This document shows positions 1 to 6,833 of a stretch of 6,833 bases of DNA, piece after piece. Position numbers and translations under genes: made by a program. Under the pieces are notes generated by a model that saw nothing but the letters and a program-made list of their open reading frames with translations, ran no database searches and had not been told where the DNA came from. This DNA comes from a virus (lineage: Duplodnaviria; Heunggongvirae; Uroviricota; Caudoviricetes), in IMG/VR virus record IMGVR_UViG_2645727743_000001, positions 1 to 6,833 of that record. One strand, written 5' to 3'. How positions within the stretch are numbered: position 1 is the first letter of the stretch; every line of letters begins with the position of its first letter.

Positions 1-603
1 CAGAAGCAGAAAAAGCTTATTATGCTTCCATCGGAAACGATGATCTGGCAGCCTGAGTTCACAGATAAAACACTCTCCAGGAAACCCGGGGCGGTTCACG
101 GCGTAAAGATTTGTCATGTAATTATTTACGGTGACAGCCGATCTCCCCGGTTGCGTAACAATATAATTACTTTTGGGGATCTGGTATCCAGTAAGTAATT
201 CTTTACGTACCGCCAGCAATTTTTCTTTATTAATCGACGAGGCAAGATTTTTTTCACCGATTATGCTCAGAATATTTTTGATGACGGCACGGTACGTGTT
301 GAGTGACGTTTTTGCGACTTCCGTTTCTTTCAGTGCCAGAAATTTTTCAGCCAGTTCCTTTATGGTTAAATCTTGTCGGGCCTCACCAAATTTTTCCAGA
401 TTGTGTGAGGAGGGAAACTGTTTTGCATAGTCGAAAACACCAGTTTTTATTGCGTAACAAACAGAGGCGCGCAGCTCACCTGCAATGCGCCTGTTTTTTG
501 CCGTGTCAGGAACCCCAAGATTTTCCCTGATTCTTACACCTTTATAAACAAACCAGATACGTAATTTCCCTCCATGGTTTTCCACGCCTGTCGGATATTT
601 CAT
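1..603 (-). CDS. int: Tyrosine integrase, N-terminal portion only (start at 603, continues past the left edge of the window)
   Basis: Minus-strand frame is open from ATG (revcomp of 601-603) to position 1; it is absent from the ORF track because it has no stop in the window. Hand translation begins MKYPTGVENHGGKLRIWFVYKGVRIRENLGVPDTAKNRRIAGELRASVCYAIKTGVFDYAKQF..., which resembles the arm-binding N-terminus of lambdoid integrases (Rac IntR from memory starts MSKLPTGVEIRGRYIRIWF). It lies 35 nt downstream of xis on the same strand. Possible weak SD GAGAGAAG upstream. Residues encoded by about 1-105 look less integrase-like to me. Confidence 0.6.
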   Translation of the reverse strand, partial: MKYPTGVENHGGKLRIWFVYKGVRIRENLGVPDTAKNRRIAGELRASVCYAIKTGVFDYAKQFPSSHNLEKFGEARQDLTIKELAEKFLALKETEVAKTSLNTYRAVIKNILSIIGEKNLASSINKEKLLAVRKELLTGYQIPKSNYIVTQPGRSAVTVNNYMTNLYAVNRPGFPGECFICELRLPDHRFRWKHNKLFLLL

Positions 604-637
604 TTCAGCTTCTCTCGTTGGTTAGTGTTACTTTTGC

Positions 638-889
638 TCAGGTAAGATGACGTCTTGGTCTTGCAGGTGCCTGGCGCTCAATCCAGCGGTCAATTTCTTC
701 CAGGTTGTAAAAGCATGGGCTGTTATCCCATGGCATACAGTCATGGGCGACATGCCTATACTCCCTTCCTTCCATAAACGATTTTTCCCTGGCTTTTTTT
801 AGCGTTCCCTTTTTTATTCCTTTCAGTGCAATTAGCTGTTCTTCGGATACCCATTTACCGGGAGAGATAATCATGATTACTTCGCTCAT
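638..889 (-). CDS. xis: Excisionase (lambda Xis-like)
   Basis: 83-aa ORF MSEVIMIISPGKWVSEEQLIALKGIKKGTLKKAREKSFMEGREYRHVAHD... has the W...R...GREY pattern of lambda/HK022 Xis (lambda DGREYLFHESA, from memory) and sits immediately upstream of int on the same strand. The start is uncertain: ATG at 889 or the in-frame ATG at 874 (MIISPGKW...); both have weak SD. Confidence 0.6.
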   Translation of the reverse strand: MSEVIMIISPGKWVSEEQLIALKGIKKGTLKKAREKSFMEGREYRHVAHDCMPWDNSPCFYNLEEIDRWIERQAPARPRRHLT

Positions 890-958
890 CGCTTTTATCT
901 CTTACTTCAGATGAGCGCCGGTTGCAGAATACCAGTCACAACCGGCGGTGGTTGAACA

Positions 959-3439
959 TTAAAAATCAGCCTGACTCGGGATCAGTTTTTGTATCGTAGC
1001 TGTAACGTATTTTGCCTGGTGACGGGCGTCATCCAGTGCATTGTGGCGCACGCCTTCGAATGGAATAACGGTTCTGGCATCAAAGTCGATTGTTTTTCCC
1101 AGCTCAACGATTGTGCGTACATCGCGATCGTTGTGGTAGCGCCACGGGCAGGGGATGTCCAGACGTTCGTATGAGGTGCGCAAAATTGCGTTATCGAAAG
1201 TCGCACCATTACCCCATACCTGAACGAATTTTTCATCTGAGTATTCGTTGATGAACTCCCGAAACTGCGAAAGGGCATCCTTCAGTTTTACCTGGTCTGT
1301 TAAAATGGCAGCTCTGGCTTCACTGGACTGCTTCAGCCACCATTCGATGGTTCCACCGTCAGGAACAGCCCCTGTATTCATTGCGTCAGTCAGACTGATA
1401 ACGATATAAAATACTGGCCCGATTTCCCCTGTTTGTGGGTCGAAGAAAACCGCACCAATAACCACGATGGGCGCATTGGTGTTGGTTCCCATTGTTTCAA
1501 GGTCGATCATCAAGTGGTACCACACTCTGCTGGTGGATGTGATAACGTGATGACCGTTCACCGCAATTAAGGGATCTGCCGTCTCGCCAGTTTCATTATC
1601 GCTGGCGTGGTCCTGAGCGCTGCCAGCATTCTCCTTGTGTGGATGTTCAGCGCCTTCCATTTCCTCCGGATCATTTTCCTGAACTTCAACCCGATTCTCT
1701 TCATTGAATGTTTCCTGGTATGTTGCGTCGCCCATCACCGCGCCACAATCAGGGCAGTTGCCGCCGCCGGTCTGACCGCAGGCGGTGCAGATCTTTTCCG
1801 GTTCCTGTTGCACTACTGGTTCAGGTTGTTTCGTTTCTGGCTCATTTTGTAACGCATTTGGGCTGTTTTGTTCCGCTTTCTGGCCGTTCTGTTCCGTTTC
1901 TTGCTGGTTCTGGTTCACAGAATCGCGGGTTTCCATCCCCTTCACCCATTTCGGATCATTCGGATCGCTAATTCCTGCAACAAATTCACCACGTGATACT
2001 GCAAGCAGTTCATCGGCGTCAGGCTGGCTGATATTGGCTGCCTGCATAATGTTGTTTACTTCGTCAGCGGTAACTTTTACCGGCCCTGGTTGTGCGGTCG
2101 TGTCAGATGCACCAGTATTTTGTTGTGAACCTGAGTATGTACTGTTTTTGCGGACGAAATATTCTTCTTTCGTGATTTCAGTAGCCCCGGCAGCCAGTGC
2201 CTTATCCAGACCAGAAAGTTTGTTTGCGCGACCGTATTTTTCGCCATCCTTGTCGGTGAAGAGGAAGTAGAACGGCCCCTCACGCTCTACAGATGGTTCG
2301 ACTTCCACTTTGCATTCGGTTTTTTCGTTGTCCGGAATTGCCGTTTCCACTGCATCAGTTTCTGGTACTGGCGACGAGAGAGTATCAGTTGCGCTCTGAT
2401 TTGTTCCTTCATCTTCAAACACGCCCTTTGTAGTCAGGTATTCAGTAATGTATTTGTTCAGTGCCACAGGGTCTTTGTGAATGTCGATCGGACGTTCACG
2501 GACAAGGCCAAAAATAGTCTGGCGGTCGTAGCGAAGGGCATCAGGCTGTTTGCGCATTGATGCTGAGATACGCTTCCAGTCTTCGCGGTCGTTGTTGATA
2601 ACTTCATTTTTTGCCCAGCGATGGATGCTGCCGTCAATGTTTCCGGCATCAACATCACCAGGCCACAGAGCGTAGGCCAGTTCATCATCCAGTGTTTTCC
2701 ATGTCTGCTTATATTCGCGACGAATGACAGCAATGACAGGGGAGATATTTTCTGCTGAGTTTTCAGTGTGCTGTCGGTTGACTCTGGCGCGGGCGAGATC
2801 AACAGCAGACGTGTATTTTCCGGTTTCCTTGCGTTCACCTTCGCGACGTTTTTTCCAGATGCGCATCTCTGCCTGAATTTCGGGCCATTTAGCACCAGGC
2901 TTACATTTATGCTTAACCCACCCGATGGCATGCAACTTAAGCTCCGGATACATGGCGTTAACTTCTGGCATTTTCATCAACGCTTCAACGATATGGCCGT
3001 CGAATGTTGCCATGTCTTCCTGCAACAATTCCTGTGCACTAATCACCATATCAACGGTGATGTTTTCACATGTGTCGAACTTAACCATGACAGCGTTCTG
3101 TACTTCAGGGGCCAGCTTGTCAAAAGTGACGTTCATCGGATCGGATTCAGTCTCAACCGGGACAAAGGAAGCAGACTCCTCATCCCAGCGGTTTTCCTGC
3201 ATATATTCAGCATCCCAGGAATCGAGGGCAGGGCGGGGTATACCGGGTTTATCCTCGCAAACAAGAAATTTATAAGCGCAGTCCTGAGCAGCCGGATAAT
3301 GTTCCAGGAATTGCCAGTGAAATTTTGCGCGGGCGCGACGTTCATCACCGGCTTCAATGGCAGTGGCTACAGCGACGGCACCTTCTTCCTTTATTGCCTG
3401 TTCGTCCGGAATGGCGGCGCAAATAAAGACTTTACTCAT
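959..3439 (-). CDS. ydfE: YdfE-family prophage protein, full length, with C-terminal DEDDh 3'-5' exonuclease domain (often annotated exodeoxyribonuclease VIII in lambdoid prophages)
   Basis: 826-aa ORF with SD GAGGT 9 nt upstream of ATG at 3439. The N-terminus MSKVFICAAIPDE...AVAVATAIEAGDERRARAKFHWQFLEHYPAAQDCAYKF matches my recollection of K-12 YdfE. The C-terminus carries DEDDh motifs: MIDLETMG (Exo I), WGNGATFDNAIL (Exo II), HNALDDARHQAKY (Exo III). The central region has a CxxC-x7-CxxC zinc-ribbon-like motif (CTACGQTGGGNCPDCG), a Q/E/P-rich low-complexity linker and the RecE-like segment LLAVSRGEFVAGISDPNDPKWVKG. Confidence 0.85.
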   Translation of the reverse strand: MSKVFICAAIPDEQAIKEEGAVAVATAIEAGDERRARAKFHWQFLEHYPAAQDCAYKFLVCEDKPGIPRPALDSWDAEYMQENRWDEESASFVPVETESDPMNVTFDKLAPEVQNAVMVKFDTCENITVDMVISAQELLQEDMATFDGHIVEALMKMPEVNAMYPELKLHAIGWVKHKCKPGAKWPEIQAEMRIWKKRREGERKETGKYTSAVDLARARVNRQHTENSAENISPVIAVIRREYKQTWKTLDDELAYALWPGDVDAGNIDGSIHRWAKNEVINNDREDWKRISASMRKQPDALRYDRQTIFGLVRERPIDIHKDPVALNKYITEYLTTKGVFEDEGTNQSATDTLSSPVPETDAVETAIPDNEKTECKVEVEPSVEREGPFYFLFTDKDGEKYGRANKLSGLDKALAAGATEITKEEYFVRKNSTYSGSQQNTGASDTTAQPGPVKVTADEVNNIMQAANISQPDADELLAVSRGEFVAGISDPNDPKWVKGMETRDSVNQNQQETEQNGQKAEQNSPNALQNEPETKQPEPVVQQEPEKICTACGQTGGGNCPDCGAVMGDATYQETFNEENRVEVQENDPEEMEGAEHPHKENAGSAQDHASDNETGETADPLIAVNGHHVITSTSRVWYHLMIDLETMGTNTNAPIVVIGAVFFDPQTGEIGPVFYIVISLTDAMNTGAVPDGGTIEWWLKQSSEARAAILTDQVKLKDALSQFREFINEYSDEKFVQVWGNGATFDNAILRTSYERLDIPCPWRYHNDRDVRTIVELGKTIDFDARTVIPFEGVRHNALDDARHQAKYVTATIQKLIPSQADF

Positions 3440-3532
3440 GTTGTTTTAACCTCATTACAGATTTAAGGGTGAACAAATCCCTGCCATTGCTGGCATATAA
3501 AAATGAAACCGGATATTAATTACGGAACTGTT

Positions 3533-3724
3533 TTAAAGACCTGCCGGGATTTCGTTATTATCCATGTGAATAACTTTATCGACCGGATAGCAGTTACCGG
3601 GAATTTTTTGTTCTGCTGCGGCAGCCATGCATTCTTTCATTGAACCGTAAATGTCAATAACCATGTCAACAGGCTCGCCAGTATTAAGAAAAACAGTCAG
3701 AGTGAGGGCAATAGTAGTATTCAT
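3533..3724 (-). CDS. ydfD: YdfD-like small lysis protein (63 aa, N-terminal hydrophobic segment)
   Basis: The ORF track gives 3533..3778, but the supported start is the internal ATG at 3722-3724, preceded by SD AAGGA (8-nt spacer) and overlapping the dicB stop in an ATGA arrangement. Product MNTTIALTLTVFLNTGEPVDMVIDIYGSMKECMAAAAEQKIPGNCYPVDKVIHMDNNEIPAGL is 63 aa, the length and position of Qin YdfD. Confidence 0.75.
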   Translation of the reverse strand: MNTTIALTLTVFLNTGEPVDMVIDIYGSMKECMAAAAEQKIPGNCYPVDKVIHMDNNEIPAGL

Positions 3725-3909
3725 TGCCAGTATCCTTTTTGCATCGGGCGTAAACGTGCCAGCATTGAAAGAATGCATATTTTATTTAATAGCTCCCGTT
3801 CGTGTTTTCTCTTATTAATGGCATCTTCAGTAAATACAGGGTTACTGATTCTGACACCAATTTCAAAACAACCTTCAGACGTATTGACGTTTGGTAATAA
3901 CGTTTCCAT
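3721..3909 (-). CDS. dicB: Cell division inhibitor DicB (MinC-activating, 62 aa)
   Basis: The ORF track gives 3721..4005, but the internal ATG at 3907-3909 has SD GAGGA 7 nt upstream. Product METLLPNVNTSEGCFEIGVRISNPVFTEDAINKRKHERELLNKICILSMLARLRPMQKGYWQ is 62 aa and matches my memory of DicB. It lies about 185 bp downstream of the DicF-like terminator, as in the K-12 dicB operon. Confidence 0.8.
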   Translation of the reverse strand: METLLPNVNTSEGCFEIGVRISNPVFTEDAINKRKHERELLNKICILSMLARLRPMQKGYWQ

Positions 3910-4092
3910 TATCGCGTCCTCAACAATGAATTTTGTGATGCGGTGCCTGGTGCCTCCAGGTGACGTTAACCAGTTAATAATTAACGCCGGATACAGAGAA
4001 CCCACCCATAAGAACCAATACGGAAGTCAACTGGCCTTTTTAACTGTTCCGCGTGCGCTGAGCCGCATTCACCGCATCACAAAATGCACTTT

Positions 4093-4150
4093 AAAAGGTG
4101 CGGGTATCATGGGAAAAACAAAACGGATACCCGCCAAAAGGTAATCAACA
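4093..4150 (-). ncRNA. dicF: DicF-like sRNA, divergent variant (boundaries approximate; 3' end set by hairpin plus U4)
   Basis: Minus-strand sequence TGTTGATTACCTTTTGGCGGGTATCCGTTTTGTTTTTCCCATGATACCCGCACCTTTT. It contains a 9-bp perfect stem (GCGGGTATC at 4134..4126 pairing with GATACCCGC at 4108..4100) followed by ACC and TTTT (4096..4093). It shares TTTGGCGG..TATC..GTTTT with the K-12 DicF sequence as I recall it, and sits in the expected position between ydfC and dicB. The 5' end is not determinable from sequence. Confidence 0.4.
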
Positions 4151-4480
4151 TGGGTTGTTGCAGCGGGGTTGTCACTCAGGCGTATGGTCAACCTGACAAC
4201 CCGGTGGACATTTGCGAGGAACGGAGAACCCCCGCCATACTTACCGCCGCGCCATTTCGCGGAGTGCCACAACCGGAAGCGCACGGTCGACGAAAATTTA
4301 ACGACAGGCTATCTATGAACCAACCACCTCGCCGTGCGCTTTCGCGTTATGCCCTGACTTTTCAGGGATATATTCTTTCTGTAAACTGTCAGTGCCGGAT
4401 ACTCACCCGTGTCCGGCGCACGCACTCCACCTCACCCGTGGAGAACTCCTTAATTACCAACCCTCAGGAGGGTGAAATTT

Positions 4481-4672
4481 ATGACACAAGAAGAAAAAGT
4501 AATGTTTCTTATGCGCCTGGCTGTGGAAACCTTTAACGCCCATTGCCAGGTGCCCCTTTCACTATCTCACGTTATTTCTCTTGCTACCGAGCAAATGGGG
4601 GAAATTGACGCCATTTACAATACATTTGAAGCATTCCTGGATAAGAAGCTTATGGCAGAGAAGCGTCAATAA
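4481..4672 (+). CDS. Hypothetical 63-aa protein, convergent with and overlapping the 3' end of the 201-aa cargo gene
   Basis: ATG at 4481 is preceded by a strong SD AGGAGGG (4466-4472) with an 8-nt spacer; the ORF track begins at the upstream GTG at 4472. Product MTQEEKVMFLMRLAVETFNAHCQVPLSLSHVISLATEQMGEIDAIYNTFEAFLDKKLMAEKRQ is non-repetitive and reads as helical. No competing long minus-strand ORF spans 4285-4649. No family recognised. Confidence 0.45.
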   Translation: MTQEEKVMFLMRLAVETFNAHCQVPLSLSHVISLATEQMGEIDAIYNTFEAFLDKKLMAEKRQ

Positions 4673-5255
4673 TCCTCATTACCCATCGTAAATTTACAGA
4701 AGTGGGCTTGATGTTGTGTTTTTCAAGCTCGCTCTTCATGATTTCCAGCAGCTTTGAGCTGATAATAAACAAATCAGGTGCATCGTTATTATTTTTATCC
4801 GCATCGTCTTTTTTCGTTTTTAACTCTTGCGGTGAATGTTCGAAAGCAACTTGCAGGGTATTATTTTTAACATCCACAGAGCTTAAAATATGTGCATATG
4901 GATGTGCTATTGTGCGCCCCTGTAAATTTGCATCGTTTTCTAAATCTTTTGATTTCAACAGAACATCAGCAAGACTCTGAATCATGCAGAGATAATCAAA
5001 AACAGTTGCCGTTTCTGTTCTGATTGCTGAAATAACATGACCATTCAGGCAAACAGAAATTACCCGTTCATCAATATCGTTTTCCTGTTTTTGATTATCA
5101 GAACCATATAGCCCTGAAAAAGCATTGCGCACATTACGAACCATATTATCGATGGTTTCTTTTTTGGTGTATGCCGGGTCAATTTTCACCAGACTATCAC
5201 CGAGTGTCGTTGCAGCAATTATCTGGATTTCTTTTGGTAAATCTTTAAATTCCAT
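4650..5255 (-). CDS. Hypothetical 201-aa soluble protein, low-GC cargo gene inserted in the dicB operon
   Basis: Intact ORF with SD GAGG 6 nt upstream of ATG at 5255, starting 22 nt after the ydfC-like stop (operon-coupled). Sampled 60-bp lines give about 33-42% GC versus about 57% in the ydfE gene. No transmembrane segment or catalytic motif recognised; there is a D/K/N-rich linker (KKDDADKNNNDAPD). Confidence 0.75.
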   Translation of the reverse strand: MEFKDLPKEIQIIAATTLGDSLVKIDPAYTKKETIDNMVRNVRNAFSGLYGSDNQKQENDIDERVISVCLNGHVISAIRTETATVFDYLCMIQSLADVLLKSKDLENDANLQGRTIAHPYAHILSSVDVKNNTLQVAFEHSPQELKTKKDDADKNNNDAPDLFIISSKLLEIMKSELEKHNIKPTSVNLRWVMRIIDASLP

Positions 5256-5277
5256 TATTAGCCTCGTTGGTTAACCA

Positions 5278-5496
5278 TTAACGTGGGTATGTAATCATTC
5301 TGGCAATGCTTAATGCCGCTGCTTTTTCCAGATTGGTGATATCCTGCTCCAGAGCGGACAGATTTTCAGCCTGCTTAGCCCTGGCTTCATTGGCCCATTT
5401 CAGGTCCTGCGCAGCCTTAATTTTCTGGTGCATCCACTCATAAAGTTCATCATCGGTATAGTCTGGCGCGATGATGACGGGTTCTCGTTTCTGCAT
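5278..5496 (-). CDS. ydfC: YdfC-like small prophage protein (72 aa)
   Basis: ORF MQKREPVIIAPDYTDDELYEWMHQKIKAAQDLKWANEARAKQAENLSALEQDITNLEKAAALSIARMITYPR with SD GAGGA 6 nt upstream of ATG at 5496. Same length and operon position as Qin YdfC. Confidence 0.7.
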   Translation of the reverse strand: MQKREPVIIAPDYTDDELYEWMHQKIKAAQDLKWANEARAKQAENLSALEQDITNLEKAAALSIARMITYPR

Positions 5497-5525
5497 ACTG
5501 ATTCCTCGCGGTGCTGCTTCGCTTA

Positions 5526-5654
5526 TCAGCCGTTAGATTTTGCCGGGCTGGAAAGCGCCTGTTTAAATTCGCTGAAGCTGAGGGCTTCTTCGCCTTCGGC
5601 AAGGCCTTCGAAGTATTCTTCGTAAGCCTTTTCCATGATTGTGTCGAAATCCAT
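5526..5654 (-). CDS. ydfB: YdfB-like small protein (42 aa), not in the ORF track
   Basis: Hand translation of the minus strand gives MDFDTIMEKAYEEYFEGLAEGEEALSFSEFKQALSSPAKSNG. ATG at 5652-5654 lies 1 nt after the ydfA-like TGA stop (TGAtATG); stop TGA at 5526-5528. Length and position match Qin YdfB. An alternative start is the internal ATG at 5634-5636. Confidence 0.6.
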   Translation of the reverse strand: MDFDTIMEKAYEEYFEGLAEGEEALSFSEFKQALSSPAKSNG

Positions 5655-5655
5655 A

Positions 5656-5811
5656 TCACCCACCTGAATCTCTTTCCAGCCAGCGACGCGCTCCAGATTC
5701 GGTTTTAAACGTTTTGCTTTTGGTATACGTCATTGCGGTGAACGTGCCGTCCTGGTTTGGAAACACGCCGTACACCAGAGATTCGTTGTTGCCAAGATCG
5801 ATAGTATCCAT
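5656..5811 (-). CDS. ydfA: YdfA-like small protein (51 aa, DUF1391-type)
   Basis: The ORF track gives 5656..5865; the internal ATG at 5809-5811 has GAGG 5 nt upstream. Product MDTIDLGNNESLVYGVFPNQDGTFTAMTYTKSKTFKTESGARRWLERDSGG is 51 aa and matches my recollection of YdfA. Confidence 0.7.
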   Translation of the reverse strand: MDTIDLGNNESLVYGVFPNQDGTFTAMTYTKSKTFKTESGARRWLERDSGG

Positions 5812-5889
5812 GCTGACCTCATTTCCCCTTAACGCCGGGGTAGCGGAACTGTTTGCTGAGAACACCGTGCGGTGTCTTGATGGAAAGTA

Positions 5890-5907
5890 ATTTAGAATAA
5901 CCTAACA
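5890..5907. promoter_or_regulatory. Degenerate operator-like palindrome (minus-strand reading TGTTAGG-TTAT-TCTAAAT) in the dicB-operon promoter region
   Basis: Matches the TGTTAGA-N4-TCTAACA pattern at 11 of 14 arm positions. Centre lies 36 bp from the perfect site at 5926-5943, between the dicA stop and the ydfA start. Confidence 0.4.
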
Positions 5908-5925
5908 TGAGAGGCAAGTGTTTTT

Positions 5926-5943
5926 TGTTAGATTGATCTAACA
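5926..5943. promoter_or_regulatory. Operator palindrome TGTTAGA-TTGA-TCTAACA (candidate DicA site controlling the ydfABC-dicF-dicB operon)
   Basis: Perfect 7-bp inverted arms with a 4-bp spacer, read directly from the sequence. Located in the 168-bp gap between the dicA stop (5980) and the ydfA-like start (5811). Confidence 0.6.
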
Positions 5944-5979
5944 AAAAGGGTGGGCGCAACTAATCACTTGAAAAGAATG

Positions 5980-6387
5980 TTATTTTATTGATTTATTTTT
6001 ACGCGCTTTAAGCATTTCTTCGAAGAGTTTGTTGAAGTTTTCTACTCTTGCGCGCATTTCAGACAGCAAGGCTTCCTGCTCGGAAGATGGAAGAGCATCG
6101 AATAATTCGATCAATTCTTTGTGGTTGGGAGTTAGCTCTGTTTCCACATGAAGTTCTTGTGCAGGCACTGGTGCCTTGTCTTCGTCACCAAACATTAGCC
6201 ATGTAGGTGAGCACTTCAGAGCATCCGCTAAAGCAAACAATCGTTTTCCGACTGGCTGGGTTTCGTCTCTTTCCCATTGTGAAATTGTGACGTGAGCAAC
6301 TCCAGCGAGGCGCGCAGCTTCTCGTTGTGTTAAGCGTAATTCTTTTCGTCGCGCCAGAACTCGCTGGCCTAGGGTTCTTGTATCCAT
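5980..6387 (-). CDS. dicA: HTH XRE-family repressor DicA (135 aa), the CI-like immunity repressor
   Basis: ORF MDTRTLGQRVLARRKELRLTQREAARLAGVAHVTISQWERDETQPVGKRLFALADALKCSPTWLMFGDEDK...EMRARVENFNKLFEEMLKARKNKSIK. It has the same length as K-12 DicA and shares CSPTWxxFGDEDK and EMRARVxNFNKLFEE with it (from memory). Divergent from the dicC-like gene. Weak or absent SD. Confidence 0.85.
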   Translation of the reverse strand: MDTRTLGQRVLARRKELRLTQREAARLAGVAHVTISQWERDETQPVGKRLFALADALKCSPTWLMFGDEDKAPVPAQELHVETELTPNHKELIELFDALPSSEQEALLSEMRARVENFNKLFEEMLKARKNKSIK

Positions 6388-6405
6388 AGTTAGGTAATTC
6401 TAATT
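6388..6405. promoter_or_regulatory. Degenerate operator-like site AGTTAGG-TAAT-TCTAATT abutting the dicA start codon
   Basis: Matches the TGTTAGA-N4-TCTAACA pattern in arm spacing and most arm bases. Lies immediately upstream of the dicA ATG (6385-6387), so it is a candidate autoregulatory site. Confidence 0.35.
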
Positions 6406-6409
6406 TTTC

Positions 6410-6437
6410 TTGACTTAGGTATCCCGCGCACAATAAT
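6410..6437 (+). promoter_or_regulatory. Candidate sigma70 promoter for dicC (-35 TTGACT, 16-nt spacer, -10 AATAAT)
   Basis: TTGACT at 6410-6415 and AATAAT at 6432-6437, read directly. The -10 abuts or overlaps the perfect operator at 6437-6454. Confidence 0.5.
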
Positions 6438-6454
6438 GTTAGAAAAGTCTAACA
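6437..6454. promoter_or_regulatory. Operator palindrome TGTTAGA-AAAG-TCTAACA between the dicC promoter and the dicC SD
   Basis: Perfect 7-bp inverted arms with a 4-bp spacer, identical arms to the site at 5926-5943. Lies directly 5' of the dicC SD AGAGGGGG (6455-6462). Confidence 0.6.
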
Positions 6455-6467
6455 AGAGGGGGCTTTG

Positions 6468-6695
6468 ATGCTTAAAGTTGACGCAATTACTTTTTTTGGC
6501 AGCAAAACAAAGCTTGCCAATGCCGCAGGAGTGAGACTGGCAAGTGTTGCTGCTTGGGGGATACTGGTTCCTGAAGGTCGCGCGATGCGTCTACAGGAGG
6601 CATCTGGCGGGGAGCTTCAGTATGATCCCAAAGTTTATGACGAATATCGTAAGACGAAGCGGGCGGGGCGGTTGAACAATGAAAATCACTCCTGA
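6468..6695 (+). CDS. dicC: DicC / YdaS-like Cro-type regulator (75 aa from ATG at 6468)
   Basis: [78 protein letters not shown]. The ORF track starts at TTG 6465; I prefer the ATG at 6468, 5 nt after SD AGAGGGGG. Divergent from dicA; fits the YdaS/DicC family pattern GSxxKLAxAxGVxxxSVxxW. Confidence 0.8.
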
Positions 6696-6786
6696 ACAGG
6701 CTCGTGAGGCTCTGGATGCCTGGATATGTCGACCAGTAGACTGGCCCCCTGAATCTCCAGACAACCAGTATCACTTAAATAAGTGA
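6679..6786 (+). CDS. Short 35-aa ORF overlapping the dicC 3' end (possible remnant or small gene)
   Basis: ATG at 6679 to TGA at 6784-6786 gives [35 protein letters not shown]. It overlaps the dicC stop by 17 nt. No SD checked; could be a truncated ydfX/ydaT-like start. Confidence 0.2.
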
Positions 6787-6833
6787 TAGTCTTAATACTA
6801 GTTTTTAGACTAGTCATTGGAGAACAGATGATT

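Follow-up and report, generated by a model that had tools for sequence, protein, structure and literature searches.

The dicB-ydfD pair of a Qin-like defective prophage of Escherichia coli and the repressor genes that usually accompany it

Small proteins of PL-type operons that block FtsZ-ring function and become toxic once the repressor is lost are known in lambda (Kil) and in the Rac prophage (KilR). The closest described counterpart of the locus examined here is, however, the dicBF operon of the Qin prophage in E. coli K-12, whose elements are dicC, dicA, dicBp, ydfABC, dicF, dicB, ydfD and ydfE. In K-12, the promoter dicBp is repressed by DicA (PMC10448788), and deletion of dicA derepresses dicBp 22-fold; because the operon inhibits growth, it had been removed in that work before dicA was deleted (PMC10448788). 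The RecA cleavage bond is missing from DicA, and Rem is the antirepressor (PMC10448788). The Keio list counts dicA among the essential genes (PMC5992433). [quoted passage not shown] DicB also has an effect on phage entry that involves ManYZ (PMC6832061). As for YdfD, its gene partly overlaps dicB, the protein is reported to bind IspG, and YdfD-mediated lysis is prevented if either DicB or SulA is co-expressed (PMC8835842).

The DNA under study (hereafter, the window) is 6,833 nt long and makes up one whole contig of a draft assembly, which starts inside an IS1203/IS629-type element and finishes inside IS2. What lies between these two IS ends is the left arm of a lambdoid prophage of E. coli that resembles Qin. 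In exact form, the 826-aa exonuclease and the 63-aa YdfD of the window are each recorded from one contig only, 6833 bases long. The IS1203/IS629-type end, of the IS3 family (1-98), is 100% identical to IS1203 copies present in thousands of genomes, and matches of the window to its relatives start at position 97. Next to it lies the N-terminal part of an integrase gene (99-603, minus strand) cut by IS1203; a relative, L001, has a 1281-nt integrase gene at this position. At the opposite side, the IS2 end (6737-6833), which is also 100% identical to IS2 copies, interrupts a ydaT-like gene that starts at 6679 on the plus strand and retains its first codons only, and an intact YdaT-family gene is found at the matching position in L001. 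With one IS in int and another in the ydaT-like gene, the prophage is defective.

The order of elements is dicC and dicA (divergent), dicBp with its operators, ydfA, ydfB, ydfC, a long leader, dicB, ydfD, an exonuclease gene, xis and int. All the small genes of the operon are intact in sequence. YdfA (5656-5811), YdfB (5526-5654) and YdfC (5278-5496), all encoded on the minus strand, are identical to their K-12 counterparts at 48 of 51, 41 of 42 and 70 of 72 positions, respectively, and YdfA matches Pfam DUF1391 (E 2e-28). Downstream of ydfD, and also on the minus strand, a full-length exonuclease of 826 aa is encoded (959-3439; Rv2179c-like 3'-5' exonuclease Pfam domain, E 8e-68; phrog_2082), which is the homologue of the K-12 ydfE pseudogene, followed by an excisionase gene (638-889; Pfam DUF1233, E 1.5e-30) annotated as xisR in the closest relative. 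The best relative among complete genomes, an E. coli genome, is 99.3% identical over 97-6736 and carries the same annotation. K-12 Qin is collinear with the window, with 88-89% nucleotide identity across most of the operon.

We consider it highly probable that the interval at 3533-3909 corresponds to dicB and ydfD within dicBF, the early-left (PL-type) operon of this Qin-like defective prophage, with a DicA-type repressor holding dicBp off. As such, the feature is already known: it is the characterised dicB-ydfD unit of a Qin-type dicBF operon under a DicA/DicC switch, and the work on toxicity and repression has largely been done already for the K-12 allele.

Both genes of the pair are on the minus strand. 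The dicB gene (3721-3909; ATG at 3909-3907, TGA at 3723-3721) encodes a cell-division inhibitor of 62 aa, and ydfD (3533-3724; ATG at 3724-3722, TAA at 3535-3533) encodes a DUF1482 protein of 63 aa. A previous reading of the window made from the sequence only (hereafter, the sequence-only reading) had described both frames as complete and endowed with good Shine-Dalgarno sequences, and this description was borne out: GAGGA lies 7 nt ahead of the dicB ATG and AAGGA lies 8 nt ahead of the ydfD ATG, within the dicB coding sequence, and family matches extend over the full length of the products. The names given to the products are likewise upheld by matches above the curated cut-offs of Pfam and NCBIfam. 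For DicB, full-length matches were obtained to the Pfam family DicB (PF05358; E 4e-37; 126 bits, cut-off 27) and to NCBIfam NF049927 (residues 1-62 of 62; 130.3 bits, cut-off 100); YdfD matches DUF1482 (PF07358; E 4e-20; 71.9 bits, cut-off 25) and phrog_1092 (E 2e-35). Two longer ORFs, one of 81 aa from an ATG at 3778 and another of 94 aa from a GTG at 4005, were rejected as genes since the profiles start at the shorter forms, which are also the forms annotated by PGAP. In the closest relatives YdfD has 67 aa. The possibility that the 63-aa form results from a sequencing slip was considered and rejected: several bases differ at the 3' end, which is of the K-12 type.

Compared with K-12, identity is 54/62 for DicB and 43/63 for YdfD. 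The dN/dS ratios against K-12 are 0.34 for dicB and 0.24 for ydfD, and across alleles they are 0.26 (27 dicB alleles) and 0.20 (37 ydfD alleles). With dN/dS at 0.2-0.3, dicB and ydfD are real genes under purifying selection, not chance ORFs. The exact DicB sequence was found on 848 contigs. Residues 3-19 of DicB are the same as in K-12, L5 included; K2E is a substitution at a position that tolerates replacement, and four of the eight substitutions relative to K-12 fall within the dispensable last 8 aa (PMC4967827). The changes in DicB appear, in other words, to avoid the residues known to matter. In YdfD, the C-terminal 35 aa are conserved (30/35 identical to K-12), and residues 1-28 are identical at 13 of 28 positions and less hydrophobic; the N-terminal 28 residues are the part of K-12 YdfD that is reported to bind IspG (PMC8835842), and their divergence is a point against taking lytic activity of this allele for granted.

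The region upstream of dicB is structured. The leader (3931-4084, minus strand) contains a 15-bp inverted repeat with arms at 4084-4070 and 3945-3931, and the fold z-score for 3880-4150 is -4.2. Rfam STnc100 (RF02076) scored 32.5 bits in the leader, below the gathering score of 47, and a similar score (34.1 bits) was obtained in the K-12 leader. A link between this STnc100-like leader and PasD sRNAs (bioRxiv 10.64898/2026.05.13.724894) was discarded, as PasD is found near Q and lpxR, not near dicB.

At the position that DicF occupies in K-12, the window harbors a terminator-like hairpin with a U-run (4093-4134, minus strand) that is not canonical DicF. The hairpin reads GCGGGTATC-N17-GATACCCGC and is followed by ACCUUUU (4134-4093). 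When canonical DicF (Rfam RF00039) was sought between ydfC and dicB, no match was obtained even at E<=10, compared with 76.7 bits for K-12. Identity to K-12 over the 53-63 bases at this position is 49%, against 85-91% in the flanks. Of the DicF position, ten allele types were found; a GC-rich stem and a U-run are common to them all, and the variation lies in the loop and the 5' tail. The type present in the window was found exact in 16 viral contigs, compared with more than 120 for K-12 DicF. With canonical DicF absent, the operon of the window is probably deprived of its third product known to be toxic. Pairing of the RNA at the DicF position with the ftsZ leader was dropped as a line of evidence since RNAduplex energies did not separate even true DicF from shuffled sequences (17% of the shuffles were as good). 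The missing canonical DicF in a minority allele may be viewed as a small lead for studies on the turnover of prophage sRNAs.

Further upstream, a long untranslated segment of the operon (4136-4462, minus strand) is common to K-12 (88.6% identical over 4146-4462) and has a fold z-score of -3.0 for 4136-4465. Between this region and ydfC, the window contains a 795-bp insertion (4463-5257) for which K-12 has no counterpart. The cassette is made of two convergent ORFs, one of 201 aa on the minus strand (4650-5255) and one of 63 aa on the plus strand (4481-4672), which match phrog_1363 and phrog_2605, both PHROGs of unknown function; searches in Pfam, PADLOC and NCBIfam gave no match to either ORF. 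Located between dicBp and dicB, the cassette with its convergent gene, together with the terminator-like hairpin, could lower read-through in a DicA-independent manner.

The overlap between the ydfD ATG and the dicB TGA, described in the sequence-only reading as ATGA, was confirmed at bases 3724-3721 of the minus strand. The same ATGA junction is present in 79 of 80 related loci (viral or prophage contigs that encode DicB at 92-100% identity), and the remaining locus gave no ydfD match. Distant DUF1482 genes also overlap the stop codon of the preceding small gene, whether or not this is dicB: PPompW phages have GTGA, following a 70%-identical DicB; a Citrobacter phage and a Salmonella phage have TGATG, following an unrelated ORF; and a Klebsiella phage has ATGA, following an ORF of 37 aa. 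The dS against K-12 jumps at the gene border, from 0.21 in dicB to 0.79 in ydfD. The dicB/ydfD junction is a mosaic joint, at which the overlap nonetheless persists.

On the basis of the overlap, translational coupling of dicB and ydfD is plausible, although "overlapping" describes the pair better than the "translationally coupled" of the sequence-only reading. The overlap might be a mere consequence of compact packing, with no functional coupling and with translation of ydfD starting, independently of dicB, from the Shine-Dalgarno sequence that it has of its own, an explanation that we consider possible if rather unlikely. Four-nucleotide overlaps of the ATGA type are very common in operons. 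Moreover, ydfD has AAGGA 8 nt upstream of its ATG, and all distant ydfD homologues have their own Shine-Dalgarno-like sequence. When 28 distinct junction sequences were folded, hairpins appeared in varying registers and none consistently masked the ydfD start; the junction of the window itself has a fold z-score of -0.7. With a Shine-Dalgarno sequence of its own and no consistent start-masking hairpin, coupling need therefore not be obligatory. What packing explains less well is that the overlap has survived both deep divergence and a mosaic joint. In addition, co-production of the two proteins has a functional rationale because DicB blocks YdfD lysis (PMC8835842).

The latter property also qualifies the view that both products are toxic, which had been put forward for this pair. 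Toxicity is indeed published for K-12, but co-expression of DicB is reported to prevent YdfD lysis (PMC8835842), so the pair is not simply a set of two independent toxins. One may even conceive a safety catch, an idea to which we give little credit: coupling would ensure that YdfD is made only alongside its antidote, DicB, and derepressed cells would form filaments and exclude phages instead of undergoing lysis. Lysis would occur only if DicB action failed, for instance upon loss of MinC function or resumption of division. As part of the same speculation, the hairpin RNA that replaces DicF may have other targets, and the output of the operon may be re-tuned between prophage variants.

An alternative view of the pair as a whole is that it may be a domesticated defence module and more than a toxic passenger under control: expressed at a low level or from time to time, it would be of benefit to the host because DicB excludes ManYZ-dependent phages. 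We regard this view as tentative, with a modest chance of being correct. DicB protects against lambda-type infection (PMC6832061), and dicBp is spontaneously on in a subpopulation of cells (PMC10448788). Furthermore, purifying selection is detected on both genes in defective prophages, including this IS-bounded remnant. On the other hand, ydfD deletion has little effect on phage resistance (PMC6832061). A role in defence would in any case be complementary to the need for repression, not in conflict with it.

The switch that would keep the pair silent is located at the right side of the window. The dicA gene (5980-6387, minus strand) encodes a DicA-subfamily repressor of 135 aa, which matches NCBIfam NF007257 at 224.7 bits (cut-off 101) over residues 1-134 of 135. 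Domain hits (Pfam HTH_3, E 1.5e-14) were of the HTH type only, with no peptidase domain. The protein is only 55% identical to K-12 DicA, a point against its holding dicBp off as in K-12. Its exact sequence is found on at least 1000 contigs and is therefore devoid of private damaging changes. By these features, it appears to be of the non-cleavable type described for DicA (PMC10448788); lacking a self-cleavage domain, induction would need an antirepressor or stress, not RecA-mediated cleavage. On the plus strand, dicC (6468-6695) encodes a P22 Cro-like protein of 75 aa (NCBIfam NF007282, 165.8 bits, cut-off 130; Pfam P22_Cro).

Four TTAG-N6-CTAA palindromes flank dicA (5892-5905, 5928-5941, 6390-6403 and 6439-6452), while 0.07 are expected by chance. 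Two are found between dicA and dicC, and two in the dicA-ydfA spacer, aligned with K-12 sites and bracketing the dicBp homologue. Alignment with the dicA-ydfA intergenic region of K-12 delimits a dicBp-homologous promoter with two putative operators (5889-5943, minus strand): the -35 element is TTGCCT (5917-5912), the -10 element is TAAATT (5894-5889), and the predicted operators are at 5926-5943 (a perfect palindrome) and 5890-5907. A consensus promoter scan made no call at the site of the dicBp homologue. The dicA/dicC intergenic region (6390-6454) contains predicted operators at 6390-6403 and 6437-6454, and a dicC promoter-like site (TTGACT-16-AATAAT, 6410-6437, plus strand). The claim that dicA and its operators are intact is thus supported by the full-length NF007257 match and by a number of palindromes far above expectation. 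All parts of the K-12 switch seem to be present and undamaged and, by likeness to K-12, the dicA of the window would function as a repressor.

Whether an intact pair implies a functional repressor, as the sequence-only reading had proposed, can be judged from the related loci. Five of the 80 had too little upstream sequence, and the repressor survey rests on the other 75. An intact repressor-like ORF was found upstream of dicB in 72/75 loci: 51 have a DicA-related ORF of 130-227 aa, 17 have either a RacR-like 158-aa ORF or a 139-aa ORF, and four have other repressor-like ORFs of 144-169 aa, each paired with a Cro-like gene in divergent orientation. In seven of the surveyed loci, the repressor upstream of dicB-ydfD is of the RacR type. 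The candidate repressors upstream of the module seem, hence, to vary widely and to belong to several different DNA-binding types. The module is also found in deposited phage genomes (mEp460, Tritos, HannyBb and PPompW).

Three loci (L031, L047 and L068) have intact DicB (62 aa) and YdfD (63 aa) but lack an intact local repressor. In L031, IS1 is located around 230 bp upstream of dicB, and ydfA, ydfC and the repressor gene are absent; L068 is rearranged, and the same genes are absent; in L047, the N-terminus of the repressor is cut by an IS3-family element. Because of these three loci, "implies" is too strong a word, and an intact pair is better said to be usually accompanied by a repressor: the association is strong, not absolute, and can be reasonably taken as an expectation but not as an implication. 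Two of the exceptions (L031 and L068) have lost the upstream operon and the promoter, and promoter loss is another way of keeping the pair harmless.

The exceptions bear also on the possibility that the pair is silenced or made harmless by causes other than its neighbour (a homoimmune repressor acting in trans, termination at the leader hairpin, RNA processing or interference from the convergent gene), in which case intactness would be uninformative about the local dicA. The number of such regions per E. coli genome has a median of two and reaches 10; with two regions per genome, a repressor could act in trans. The hairpin at 4134-4093 and the convergent ORF at 4481-4672 are local candidates for further silencing, and layered control beyond DicA has been published (PMC10448788). 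We nevertheless consider this possibility unlikely. An intact repressor-like ORF is present in 72/75 loci, and the local dicA, operators and promoter are undamaged; in K-12, deletion of dicA alone is sufficient for 22-fold dicBp derepression (PMC10448788), and dicA is essential in the Keio list (PMC5992433). The possibility that both ORFs are decaying, non-functional remnants that are intact by chance is very improbable: the prophage is defective, int and the ydaT-like gene being interrupted by the two IS elements, and the N-terminal part of YdfD has diverged from K-12, but dN/dS is 0.2-0.3, the family matches of both ORFs are full-length, an identical DicB is encoded on 848 contigs, and the critical N-terminal residues of DicB are kept (PMC4967827).

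Under the preferred interpretation, a dicB-ydfD segment held off by DicA, events can be tentatively depicted as follows. Judging from K-12 experiments, the DicA-type repressor would bind the TTAG-N6-CTAA palindromes at either side of its own gene and keep dicBp off. If repression failed, a single transcript carrying dicB and ydfD would be formed. DicB would then bind MinC and block septation, and would block ManYZ-dependent phage entry as well; YdfD would bind IspG and cause lysis in dividing cells, an outcome that DicB would prevent. We further infer that ribosomes ending dicB may restart at the overlapping ydfD ATG, so that YdfD would be made only together with DicB, by which its lytic effect is masked. 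Selection would act against the loss of dicA since the products of dicB and ydfD would be released.

As a textbook example of toxic genes that render the cryptic-prophage repressor silencing them indispensable, the locus matters little beyond correct annotation. The survey adds that the dicB-ydfD overlap is nearly invariant, that the module sits behind many types of repressor, and that it can stay intact with no local repressor when the promoter is lost.

With K-12 Qin, the window shares gene order and orientation, and also the 4-nt overlap between dicB and ydfD; dicBp is homologous, and the operators are likewise of the TGTTAG...CTAACA type. There are also differences: the window lacks canonical DicF, has ydfC separated from the leader by the 795-bp cassette with its two ORFs, and carries a full-length exonuclease gene where K-12 has a pseudogene (ydfE). 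DicA is 55% identical and YdfD 68% identical, and IS1203 and IS2 are placed elsewhere than the IS2 of K-12.

Beyond Qin, Kil and KilR resemble DicB in being division inhibitors of the early left operon of lambdoid phages or prophages. However, they bear no sequence relation to DicB, which acts through MinC and has an overlapping lysis gene. With regard to single-gene lysis proteins (phiX174 E, Qbeta A2, phage M LysM), K-12 YdfD is likewise a small protein that causes lysis by inhibition of a host enzyme of envelope synthesis, IspG (PMC8835842). Unlike them, YdfD is not the lysis protein of a small lytic phage but comes from a temperate one, where its gene is part of an early operon under repressor control; in addition, if the proteins of the window behave like those of K-12, its lysis would be suppressed by the upstream neighbour, DicB. 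Finally, RacR of the Rac prophage, with ydaS and ydaT, is likewise a cryptic-prophage repressor listed as essential that silences adjacent toxic genes; racR and dicA are in fact listed together as essential (PMC5992433). The difference lies in the side that is silenced: the toxic genes are on the Cro side in Rac and on the PL side in the locus described here.

The small RNA gene that lies between ydfC and dicB in the K-12 operon has no canonical counterpart in the window: when the corresponding position (4093-4145, minus strand) was searched with the Rfam DicF model, canonical DicF was not found, while the K-12 sequence matches that model with 76.7 bits. Identity to K-12 is 49% within this segment, against 85-91% in the flanking sequence. 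What the segment does contain is a GC-rich hairpin, unlike K-12 DicF, together with a U-run. Among related loci, the DicF position is occupied by at least five allele types, and the type present in the window is a minority allele (16 exact copies in IMG/VR versus more than 120 for K-12 DicF).

RNA structure is predicted on both sides of this position. Downstream lies the dicB leader (3931-4084, minus strand), closed by a perfect inverted repeat of 15 bp (4084-4070 / 3945-3931), whose predicted folding is far stronger than that of shuffled sequences. Comparison with the Rfam sRNA family STnc100 gave a score of 32.5 bits, below the gathering threshold of 47, and the K-12 leader likewise remained below it (34.1 bits). 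On the other side, a long G+C-rich untranslated stretch (4136-4462, minus strand) extends from the DicF position to an inserted cassette. K-12 has the same stretch at 88.6% identity, and strong structure is predicted on the minus strand (z-score -3.0); a role as a signal for processing or for read-through is conceivable.

The dicB reading frame remains open for 32 codons further upstream, as far as a GTG at 4005 (3721-4005, minus strand), and a long DicB form of 94 aa is annotated in the record of phage mEp460. The border between dicB and ydfD is a mosaic joint (3533-3730): measured against K-12, synonymous divergence is 0.21 for dicB but 0.79 for ydfD. At its 3' end, ydfD of the window has K-12-like codons and yields a product of 63 aa, while the closest relatives have another ydfD 3' end and a product of 67 aa.

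A complete contig of a draft assembly makes up the window, and both of its ends lie inside IS elements, an IS1203/IS629-type element (1-98) and IS2 (6737-6833). These IS copies interrupt the integrase gene after about 169 codons and a ydaT-like gene after about 19 codons; the prophage is therefore defective.

When the DicA-type repressor (5980-6387) was compared with those encoded upstream of dicB-ydfD in related loci (L021, L028, L029, L050 and L077), their N-terminal DNA-binding parts were found to differ greatly. Several of the compared repressors share a DicA-like C-terminal motif, approximately L-x-x-F-x-x-[LF]-P-x-x-[ED]. This pattern suggests a common dimerisation module onto which DNA-binding heads have been swapped.

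Relative to K-12, the operon also contains an insertion of 795 bp (4463-5257). The insertion harbors two convergent ORFs whose 3' ends overlap by 23 nt. One, of 201 aa (4650-5255, minus strand), matches phrog_1363 over its N-terminal 130 aa; the other, of 63 aa (4481-4672, plus strand), belongs to phrog_2605. Neither ORF matched a known function or defence system. In phages PPompW and mEp460, a forward gene and a convergent small gene are annotated at the same position, as in the window.
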